24,422 nt of DNA from a virus (taxonomy: Duplodnaviria > Heunggongvirae > Uroviricota > Caudoviricetes): positions 1 through 24,422 of the IMG/VR virus record IMGVR_UViG_2529292920_000019. One strand, written 5' to 3'. Position numbers: made by a program. Numbering within the stretch: position 1 is the first letter of the stretch; every line of letters begins with the position of its first letter. Of the stretch, positions 9,201 to 12,200 are shown piece by piece.

Positions 9201-12200
9201 GCCGTTCTGCGGGTCGGTGTAATTCACCTCCACCGCCGTGTGGCGGTCCTTCAGGGCGCTGAAGCTGTAGCGAAACCCCACGCCGTTATCATCCACCACC
9301 ACATCGCAGTTGGTGTACGGCCACACCACATCCGACGGGCGGTCCTGAACGAACGTCAGCGTCTGGCCGTTCCATACCGGCATACAGCGCATCGCCGAGC
9401 AGAAATCACTGAGCACATCCCATGCCTTACGCTGTTGTGACAGGTACGCATTAAAGGTCATCCGCGGCTCTGTGCCCCCGAAACCATCCGGGACCGTCTG
9501 GTCGCAGTACTGCCCGATGGCATACAGCGCCCATTTGTCCACGTCTGCCGCCCCCAGACGTTTTCCCATGCCGTAGCGCGGGTGAGTCAGCATGTCCCAC
9601 AGGCACCAGGCCGGGTTGTTGCTGTATGCCGGTTTCAGGCTGCCGTCCCAGATGCCGCTGTACGTGCGTTTTTCCGGGTCATAGTTTGACGGCACCTGGA
9701 TGATGCGACCTCGGATATGGTAGTTCACCGTCATCTGCTGACCGCCAAACTGCTCCGCATCCACCTGCAGCCCCACAATCGCCGTGTTCGGGTAGCACTG
9801 TTTCACATCGATGATTTCGGTGTATGACGACCAGAGCGTCTTATTCTGCAGCTGGTCCGAGGTGCTGTCCGCTGTCTCCCGGACCATCCGGATGTTAAAG
9901 GGCCGCTCAGGCAGATTCTCCAGAATCACCGACGCCAGGTACTGTGAGGTGGTCTTGCCGTTAATGGTGACATCCTTTTCCGTCACCCAGTTACCGTTAC
10001 GCTGCAACTGAATCAGCAGTCGGACAGAAGAGGGATTACGGTCGCCCTTTGAGGTGGTCTCCAACAGTGACTGCACCCCGAAGGTGACCCGCAGGCGGTC
10101 AATGTTCGCGGATGTAATGGTGCGCGTTACCGGCTTTGCCTTCGTCACTTCCACGCCCAGTCCGGTTTCAGCTCCGGAGGACTCAAAGCCTTCCGGTGGT
10201 GTCTGCTCCTGCTCCCCGGCGCGCCAGACCGCGGTCACACCGTGTATCACAGGATTGCCGTCCGTGTCCGTCAGCGGGGTTTTGTTCACCAGGATACTCT
10301 GCAGCCCCTTCACCGGGCCTTCTATCGGTCCCTCACCAATCGCATCAATCACACTCATCATCTGCGTGGATTTGAGATTATCCTTCGCCTCTCGAGGCGT
10401 GTGCGCCCTGCCGCCACCTTTGCCCATAATGTTCCTCTCAATTGGTATTATTAATCGCAGTGATAGGATATTGCACAGCTATTGCGCGATATCATCAGAA
10501 CGCTGTTTGTTACCCTGTAACCAGCAAGCTCAGTCTGTTAACGGAATTAATGAGGGTTTTATGAAATGTAAAATCATTGCTGCCATTGCCATGCTGACAG
10601 CAGCATCATGCGGATACGCAGCAGAACAGGAAGTCCCAATGAACCTTGTCAGTGCTGACGGAAAAGAAGTCAGCATTGGAAAAATAACCATTCAGGAGAC
10701 CCCCTACGGTCTGCTGTTCACACCAGCCCTTCACTCTCTGTCTGAAGGCATTCATGGTTTTCATGTGCACGAAAAAGGAAATTGCGCCCCGGCACTGAAA
10801 GACGGAAAACCGGTCGCAGCATTATCGGCTGGCGGTCACTTTGACCCGAAAAACACCGGCAAACATCTTGGCCCCTGGTCTCCGGATGGACACCTGGGCG
10901 ACCTCCCTGCGCTGTTCGTGACGCATGACGGAAAAGCGAACTACCCGGTCCTGGCCCCGAGACTGAACTCATTAAAAGAGATTAAAGGGCGTTCTCTCAT
11001 GCTTCATGCTGGCGGTGATAACCATCATGACCATCCGGAGCCCCTGGGCGGTGGTGGTGCGAGAATGGCCTGCGGCATCATTCAATAATCAGTCAGGTAA
11101 GGGGCGGGCCCCTTACCTTTATTCCTCAGGACGATAAATCCTTTCTCCCTGAAAAGAACGGCACATCCTCCCTCTCTGAGTTAATGTTTTTGTCGTGACA
11201 TAAGAATAATTCCTTACACTCAATCTTCGTAACGCTCCCGCAGTTCCTGTCCGTGAGCACTGCGGGATTTTTTCGCTTTTATGCCTGCCGCCCGATAACC
11301 ACGACCTTTCCGCCCCCGCCTTCATCACGGGTACTGATGTCCTGGGATATACGGCGGGAGCCAACCAGCATTTCCCCGTAAGGCACCGGCATCGGGTTAC
11401 CCTGGGCAATCATGTTGTCCAGTGACGAAAAATACGTGTTCTGTCTGCCGTTATCCGTGCTTTTGTACTCCGGTACTTTAGCCTTCGGGGCCAGCATCTG
11501 AGCCACACCACCCAGAATCATGCTGGCCCCCAGAGAAAACAGCATCGTGGTGGCAGAAAAACCACCGGCTGCCAGGGCTGAACCCCATAACGCCATTGAT
11601 GCCCCGGCAGTGAAGAAAGAGCCCACGATGGCTGCCGCCCCCAACACAATCTGCAGTCCACCCTTTCCGGCCCCGGCCAGTCGCGGCACAATGTGGATGA
11701 CCGTTCCCTCACCCAGCTGTTCGTGAAGGCGGGCGTACACCACCTCCGGTGCCGTGTCTTCACCGGCAATACGTATCTGGTACCAGCCTTCGTTCATCTG
11801 ACGGCGGAATCCCGGCACCTGTAACGACAGCGCCCGGATGGCTTCCGCTGCCGTGTTCACATACAGGCTGAGGCGGCGGCCAAATCGTTGCAAATCCCCG
11901 TGAAGGCAGATGCGTGCCAGTGGCGGTGACGCCAGACAGAATGCGTTCGTCGTTGCCATTTTTCGGAATACCTCTCCCGTTTACTCAGTTGTTCAGGCAG
12001 ATGGTGAAGCAGTTCACCGTTGCCGCAGTAAATGGCGGCATGATTGGCCACCGATGCGCCAAAGCAGCACAGCAGGATATCGCCCGCCTGTGCAGAGGAC
12101 AGGGGCACCCGGTAAAAGCCCGTTGCCTCCATATTGTCCAGGTACAGGTTCTGACCGTTGCGCCACCACTCATCCTCACGGTGAAAATCCGGCATCTCAA

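Follow-up and report, generated by a model that had tools for sequence, protein, structure and literature searches.

The region between tail genes I and J of a 24,422-nucleotide stretch of lambdoid prophage DNA (IMG/VR record IMGVR_UViG_2529292920_000019, positions 1 to 24,422; the whole stretch is referred to here as the window) is, with high confidence, the sodC-F1 lysogenic-conversion locus of prophages of the enterohaemorrhagic and enteropathogenic Escherichia coli (EHEC/EPEC) type, and the second of the two terminators that follow sodC was there beforehand and was not borne by sodC. The window encodes an intact, signal-peptide-bearing Cu,Zn superoxide dismutase between I and J, antisense to the Q-dependent late tail operon. 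The I-J intergenic region comprises exactly 10428..11278. Even the allele of this locus has been described before; what is new is confined to its second terminator, which belongs to a pre-existing small RNA (sRNA) gene.

The sodC-F1 gene, its expression and its terminators

The protein encoded by sodC was compared with Pfam, with human SOD1 and with published alleles. It matched the Sod_Cu family (PF00080) above the curated threshold (E = 3.9e-32; 111.9 bits versus a cutoff of 28.9), covering profile positions 3-133 of 133. Alignment to SOD1 revealed that the copper ligands (H68, H70, H93, H149) and the zinc ligands (H93, H102, H111, D114) were all in place, and that the catalytic arginine (R168) and the disulfide cysteine (C171) were kept; the human counterparts of this set are H46, H48, H63, H120, H71, H80, D83, R143 and C146. 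C75 is conserved with bacterial SodC structures, and the closest solved structures were bacterial periplasmic SodC enzymes at ~60% identity. The same N-terminal peptide has been analyzed experimentally: signal peptidase I processes it, as does signal peptidase II in part (PMC2569942).

At the level of the allele, the protein was identical at 175/175 residues to ECs_1989 of prophage Sp10 of E. coli O157:H7 strain Sakai, and at 174/175 to sodC_1 of Sakai Sp4 (ECs_1120), the sole difference being L112P. The T at nucleotide 335 (Leu112) is that of the sodC-F1 allele of D'Orazio et al. 2008 (PMC2569942). Identity to Sp10 was likewise 100% over the 851-bp I-J spacer and over the 299 bp that precede the sodC ATG. 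Independent expression of sodC-F1 from the prophage, apart from late transcription, has been shown in the literature for this identical sequence. Epitope-tagged SodC-F accumulates in uninduced cultures, log-phase and anaerobic cultures included (D'Orazio et al. 2008, PMC2569942), and expression was RpoS-independent, as tested in K-12 strains with lacZ fused to the 299-bp stretch before the start codon (PMC2569942). This published promoter fragment corresponds to 10428..10560 plus ~166 bp of antisense J sequence. The enzyme is a very stable dimer that is anchored in part by lipid through its AASC motif; superoxide dismutase activity has been published for the identical SodC-F1 protein, sodC-F mutants are more sensitive to H2O2, and SodC-F contributes to hydrogen peroxide resistance (PMC2569942). 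A PhoP box upstream of sodC, considered by analogy with sodCI, was rejected: only matches with three mismatches were found, overlapping the ribosome-binding site and start codon, and they were at chance level (39 versus 30.7 ± 5.5).

Two plus-strand hairpins with T-runs follow sodC, and both fold better than shuffled sequences. The hairpin of terminator 1 (11095..11118) has a folding energy of -17.4 kcal/mol (z = -2.9), and that of terminator 2 (11236..11267) one of -16.1 kcal/mol (z = -2.4), with a tail of TTTTTT and then CGCTTTT; terminator 2 as a whole (11236..11273) ends 5 nt short of the I stop codon on the opposite strand. A terminator scan of 2.2 kb returned 6 terminator-like sites versus 1.9 ± 1.5 in shuffles. 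The single minus-strand match between I and J was weak and lay inside sodC (10804..10785; 6 pairs, 3 of them G-C, loop of 8), and no T-run follows either hairpin when it is read on the minus strand. An Rfam scan of the whole window gave no matches at gathering thresholds. At E ≤ 1 it returned a weak STnc400 match and three chance snoRNA matches, none of which was used; the STnc400 match, at 11052..11128 (+), scored 23 bits versus a gathering threshold of 80 (E = 0.08), spans the last sodC codons and terminator 1, and probably amounts to mere terminator likeness.

A preliminary description of the window, made from its sequence alone, had already proposed most of this picture. Its Cu,Zn superoxide dismutase gene with signal peptide and intact metal ligands, its two plus-strand terminators after sodC and its remark that no minus-strand terminator was evident are all borne out by the results above. 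The comparison with Salmonella sodCI that it suggested gave 59-60% identity to sodCI and sodCIII, next to the full identity with O157:H7 SodC-F1, and the parallel it drew with prophage-borne sodC of Salmonella and EHEC is correct (Fels-1, Gifsy-2, Sakai Sp4 and Sp10). Its reading of sodC as an independently expressed lysogenic-conversion gene was already established, because the published expression data, obtained in non-induced lysogens, concern the identical sodC-F1 sequence (PMC2569942).

Spacers of related phages and the EcOnc22/23/24 sRNA gene

The preliminary description took direct adjacency of I and J as the baseline from which sodC was added, and here the comparison with relatives led to a different picture. 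In most related phages, which are without sodC, the matches to I and to J are separated by ~240 bp more than a direct junction would give. A survey covered 80 IMG/VR loci encoding close gpI relatives, and these gave 76 complete spacers in three length classes: 234-255 bp (n = 32) and 338-344 bp (n = 33), both without sodC, and 848-851 bp (n = 11), with sodC. Relatives without sodC therefore have a spacer of 234-344 bp with a plus-strand transcription unit of its own.

This I-proximal unit was common to all spacers without sodC. A near-consensus plus-strand promoter, TTCACA followed after 16 nt by TATAAT (47 spacers) or AATAAT (10 spacers), was identified in 57 of the 65; it scores 11/12 in PhiR5_1, and the same scan finds none in the window, 11127..11172 included. 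Some 6-7 nt beyond the promoter come GCGTTA(A/G)TG and a T-run, a variable centre of ~30 nt, a conserved (T)TAATCTTC box, and an invariant stem CCCGCAG/CTGCGGG with variable loops and a T-run that ends a few bases before the I stop. The stem and T-run were present in 27/27 distinct spacer variants, with at least five different loops. Alignments revealed that the I-proximal ~100 bp of the window spacer, terminator 2 included, is conserved in PhiR5_1 and in Sakai Sp15, Sp14 and Sp11. From the J start codon to ~11172, the window differs wholly from these four spacers, and terminator 1 was not present in the aligned spacers without sodC.

The plus-strand unit of the spacer is the gene of EcOnc22/23/24, an Hfq-bound sRNA of ~90 nt. 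Tree et al. 2014 (PMC4104026, Table S2) listed EcOnc22 (Sp15), EcOnc23 (Sp14) and EcOnc24 (Sp11) as homologous peaks in Hfq cross-linking and analysis of cDNA (CRAC), on the plus strand, with a Northern band of ~85 nt and destabilised without Hfq (PMC4104026). In the current Sakai record, all three peaks fall inside the 240-bp I-J spacers of these prophages, antisense to the tail genes. Taken at face value, the published coordinates put the Hfq peaks on a J-proximal hairpin; this placement is wrong, the Sakai reference having since been revised. The offset from old to current coordinates was ~+140 for AgvB1 at 1.94 Mb and ~+136 at 2.93 Mb, where the StxS Term-seq 3′ end (2,925,944, PMC7547250) was compared with the tR′ T-run of the current record. 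After correction, the peaks lie over the body of the sRNA and over the 5′ arm of its terminator. Decisive evidence came from the Northern probe published for EcOnc22/23/24: it maps to 1375-1397 (-) of locus L004 and to the equivalent positions in Sp14 and Sp11, which places it on the minus strand in the sRNA segment, and it therefore detects plus-strand RNA there. The AgvB/AsxR and Pas sRNAs were ruled out as the spacer element; their sequences are different, and they are located close to the Q/lysis region. The targets of EcOnc22/23/24 were still listed as unknown in a 2021 review. More generally, the Sakai sRNA coordinates of Tree 2014 and Sy 2020 are offset by ~+136 to +140 bp relative to NC_002695.2 in the 1.9-2.9 Mb range, and mapping the EcOnc tables onto NC_002695.2 uncorrected leads to misplaced features.

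The EcOnc22 family is itself mosaic. Across the I-J spacers L014-L093, L001 and L004 and at 11178..11273 of the window, the conserved parts are the 5′ box, the AAUCUUC box and the terminator stem; the central segments, of at least 4-5 unrelated kinds, and the terminator loops, of at least five, are shuffled among the alleles. The centres share a C/U-rich AAC/UUCCUU motif complementary to Shine-Dalgarno sequences. This mosaic structure suggests seed swapping, as in the AgvB/AsxR anti-sRNAs.

The J-proximal side of the spacer varies by module. In the 234-255 bp spacers, the segment replaced in the window also holds a terminator-like 10-bp hairpin followed by TGTTTTTGTG on the late strand, located inside the tail operon just upstream of J (671..694 (-) in L001, 1242..1265 (-) in L004). 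This hairpin might block non-antiterminated transcripts or end a convergent small RNA. The window has no counterpart of the hairpin and TGTTTTTGTG, which agrees with the earlier remark on its minus strand. A third J-proximal module, of ~180 bp, occupies the 338-344 bp spacers (L022, L025, L034 and 30 other IMG/VR loci); it carries a hairpin, AAACCCCGGTATC-AGCA-GATACCGGGGTTT, with T/A runs on both sides that give it a bidirectional look, and behind it come the same sRNA promoter and gene. The slot between I and J is modular: at least three J-proximal modules, the sodC cassette among them, are interchangeable there. A distance of 60 bp separates I from J in lambda, and the hairpin between them was not flagged as a late-strand terminator by our scan.

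In the window, the I-proximal segment is a promoter-less homologue of the EcOnc22/23/24 sRNA. Homology to intact sRNA genes starts at TCTCTG (11173), one base past the position of the -10 hexamer, and the equivalent of the transcription start site is GAGTTA at 11178; cassette sequence ACATCCTCCC stands where intact genes have GCTAATAATT. The segment at 11173..11273 has the I-abutting location, antisense orientation, 5′ box, AAUCUUC box and CCCGCAG/CUGCGGG terminator of the family, and lacks the family's own promoter (TTCACA, 16 nt, TATAAT). Compared with EcOnc22/23/24 of Sp15, Sp14 and Sp11, it is alike in position, in the 5′ G-GUUA-U-run, in the AAUCUUC box and in the stem with its U-run, and differs in the missing promoter and in its central (probable seed) allele; the published Northern probe has no match to this allele. 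Its 28-nt central body, GTCGTGACATAAGAATAATTCCTTACAC, is found identical behind intact promoters in PhiR5_1, L020, L031, L044 and L088, with closely similar downstream sequence, and compared with L020 just 3 positions differ in ~100 nt. The junction between cassette and sRNA was shared by 12/12 sodC-bearing loci examined, Sakai Sp4 and Sp10 included.

At its other end, the cassette begins directly upstream of the J ATG, thereby supplying the Shine-Dalgarno sequence of J; at this position, spacers without sodC read GAGGTGAT or similar. The arrival of sodC was not the clean insertion that had been described: the cassette stands in place of ~140 bp that comprise the sRNA promoter, the late-strand hairpin and the J ribosome-binding site. 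The idea of two tandem terminators insulating sodC held for terminator 1, which is cassette-specific, and failed for terminator 2, which is the terminator of the EcOnc22/23/24 sRNA. Comparison of the spacers shows, as far as present sequences tell, that terminator 2 was not brought in by sodC and would have been inherited from the prior sRNA locus. The features of the locus are listed in Table 1.

Table 1. Features in and around the I-J region of the window
Feature	Position	Strand	Basis
gpJ, tail tip attachment / host specificity protein (1158 aa)	6951..10427	-	six J-specific Pfam domains; gpJ annotation in identical genomes
AT-rich region upstream of sodC (39.8% GC)	10428..10560	+	100% identical to Sakai Sp10
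J Shine-Dalgarno GAGAGGAA, within cassette-specific sequence	10432..10439	-	direct reading
sodC Shine-Dalgarno GAGGG	10553..10557	+	direct reading
sodC-F1, periplasmic, partly lipidated Cu,Zn superoxide dismutase (175 aa)	10561..11088	+	open reading frame and Pfam match
AASC lipobox of SodC-F1 (signal peptide = aa 1-20)	10600..10611	+	N-terminus read directly from sequence
Terminator 1, the cassette's own: 10-bp stem AGGTAAGGGG/CCCCTTACCT, 4-nt loop, tail TTTATTCC	11095..11126	+	fold and scan
Cassette-specific tail, at the site of the sRNA promoter in relatives without sodC	11127..11172	+	alignments
Promoter-less EcOnc22/23/24-family sRNA homologue: body GUCGUGACAUAAGAAUAAUUCCUUACAC, UCAAUCUUC box, terminator	11173..11273	+	homology, location
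Terminator 2, the sRNA gene's terminator: 9-bp stem UCCCGCAGU/ACUGCGGGA, 14-nt loop, T6	11236..11273	+	fold and scan
gpI, tail assembly protein (226-aa open reading frame; RefSeq form 193 aa)	11279..11959	-	Pfam Lambda_tail_I

The cassette has a GC content of 50.5%, higher than that of its own upstream region (Table 1), and I and J have 58-60%. Sakai Sp4 and Sp10 show the same geometry as the window: the stop codons of I and sodC are 190 bp apart, and the start codons of sodC and J 133 bp.

Origin of the arrangement and competing explanations

We propose that the sodC cassette (~745 bp, 10428..11172) replaced the J-proximal part of the spacer up to one base past the -10 box of the sRNA gene. 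Such a replacement would have given J a new ribosome-binding site and left the whole transcribed sRNA sequence without its promoter. Most sodC transcripts would then stop at terminator 1, and those that read through it would stop at terminator 2, which would shield I-K-L-M-H from antisense transcription; on induction, Q-modified polymerase would be expected to read the minus strand through the whole region into J. The favoured reading of the orphaned sRNA sequence is that it is a relic, which we regard as probable. The list of Tree et al. (PMC4104026) has no Hfq peak downstream of sodC in Sp4 or Sp10, which is weak evidence for a relic.

Several points weigh against this account. Extant sequences do not prove which way the exchange went: sodC may have displaced the promoter module, or the promoter module may have displaced sodC. 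The U-tract of terminator 1 is interrupted (UUUAUU), and its efficiency is thus uncertain. The promoter scan found no sigma-70 consensus match of 9/12 or better upstream of sodC, and the sodC promoter may be positioned within the antisense J part of the 299-bp fragment. Finally, the window was compared with Sakai, and the strain behind the published lacZ fusion is EDL933.

Both terminators could instead be part of a self-contained sodC moron that was dropped between two adjacent genes and that carries them as a double insulator. The two hairpins are real and lie downstream of sodC on its own strand, where both would act, one after the other, on transcripts reading through from sodC. However, terminator 2 and the ~60 nt that precede it are nearly identical in sodC-less I-J spacers, where they stand behind a strong promoter of their own; in Sakai the unit that ends in terminator 2 is a Northern-verified sRNA; and the empty site measures 234-344 bp and is not a direct I-J junction. 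We consider a double insulator of this kind very unlikely. The view that sodC is silent cargo or a pseudogene without a role in a decaying prophage draws on the defective appearance of the prophage in the window, which has a frameshifted tape-measure gene and insertion sequence (IS) elements, and it is hardly credible for sodC itself: the reading frame is uninterrupted and matches exactly an allele that gives an active protein, detected in vivo, and whose deletion lowers hydrogen peroxide resistance, and the locus is conserved in 10% of complete E. coli genomes.

A different question is whether the sRNA remnant is still functional, with an Hfq-binding RNA arising from terminator 1 read-through and processing or from a weak promoter in 11127..11172. 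The complete transcribed sequence has been kept, with 3 differences from the promoter-intact L020 allele; the junction falls exactly between the -10 box and the start site; the terminator 1 U-tract is interrupted; and the sRNA segment is retained in all 12 sodC-bearing loci examined. Against this, Tree et al. listed no Hfq peak after sodC in Sp4 or Sp10, though both carry the sRNA allele of the window, the scan found no promoter-like match that could serve the remnant, and the high conservation may simply come from a cassette that is nearly clonal (11 loci, 4 variants) and has spread recently. On balance, a functional remnant seems unlikely to us. We would give similarly low credence to the more specific proposal that the sodC-F unit ends in a complete EcOnc22-family sRNA, and that read-through and 3′-end processing release an Hfq-binding RNA that tracks SodC-F expression. 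The relic reading of the remnant, with terminator 2 inherited from the earlier sRNA gene, is the one we retain.

Distribution, related systems and significance

To determine how widespread the arrangement is, the 1.5-kb sodC region was searched for in complete E. coli genomes and phage records. It was present at a coverage of at least 80% in 544 of 5,426 complete E. coli genomes (10%), and in these 544 genomes always as an annotated sodC between gpJ and a tail assembly protein. The I-sodC-J arrangement was also found in two Stx2a-converting phages and in 11/76 complete IMG/VR spacers. Conversely, sodC was not present in 65/76 complete IMG/VR spacers, nor in 149/151 phage records matching the I-J query region.

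The closest known systems are SodC-F1 and SodC-F2 of E. coli O157:H7 (Sakai Sp10 and Sp4; CP-933 prophages of EDL933), which have the same I-J position and antisense orientation. There was no difference from Sp10 at the sodC locus itself; the window prophage overall shows ~92-95% identity to Sp10 and Sp4 and has in addition an IS21-family insertion and the frameshifted tape-measure gene. In Salmonella Fels-1, sodCIII occupies the same I-J slot, likewise antisense, with a terminator hairpin that abuts the I stop. Fels-1 (locus L013) has sodCIII at 3495..4019 (+) and a lambda-like late-strand hairpin (AAACCGCCTCTGGGCGGTTT+TGTCGTTT) at 3374..3393 (-), between sodCIII and J; only 53 bp with one hairpin separate sodCIII from I, so there is no sRNA remnant there. 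Gifsy-2 sodCI is also a prophage Cu,Zn superoxide dismutase gene antisense in the tail operon, but it lies between lom/M and L. SodC of the window shares only 59-60% protein identity with Fels-1 SodCIII and Gifsy-2 SodCI, and alignments of Fels-1 and Gifsy-2 with the window gave no convincing non-coding conservation except in the J ribosome-binding region with Fels-1. A regulatory sequence common to the window and Gifsy-2 sodCI or Fels-1 sodCIII was dropped as a candidate, the non-coding similarity being too little. With phage morons (Juhala/Hendrix; lambda lom and bor), sodC shares the character of an extra gene among late genes, expression from the prophage, a terminator of its own and a lower GC content. 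Unlike a typical moron, it is antisense to the late operon and replaced an earlier occupant instead of joining a bare junction.

Elsewhere in the window, an IS21-family element of 1,954 bp was identified at 4282..6235 (istA 5127..6149, istB 4348..5130), inserted with lom (6259..6918) on one side and the tail-fibre gene (2931..4241) on the other; the otherwise collinear prophage of strain AMSHJX01 lacks it. The tape-measure (H) gene at 13630..16208 is split into two overlapping open reading frames by a 1-nt deletion near 15155/15156 relative to an intact 2,580-bp homologue; this frameshift probably means that the prophage is defective, or else reflects a sequencing error. An IS4/Tn5-like transposase (Tnp_DNA_bind, DDE_Tnp_1, Dimer_Tnp_Tn5) lies at 901..2274, downstream of the tail-fibre region.

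Taken together, the main finding is textbook knowledge for EHEC and Salmonella, in which prophage sodC is a fitness or virulence gene that lies antisense in the tail operon and is expressed independently. The modest added value is architectural, in that a modular I-J slot explains the second terminator, and it carries the caution that a hairpin beside a cargo gene need not belong to that cargo. If the sRNA at the end of the sodC-F unit were released from read-through transcripts, SodC-F expression would be coupled to sRNA regulation, and the locus would illustrate, in a prophage, how the mRNA of a virulence gene can capture a resident sRNA as its 3′ untranslated region. For Stx-type lambdoid phages, the I-J junction is a modular slot whose I side always ends in an antisense sRNA body and its terminator.

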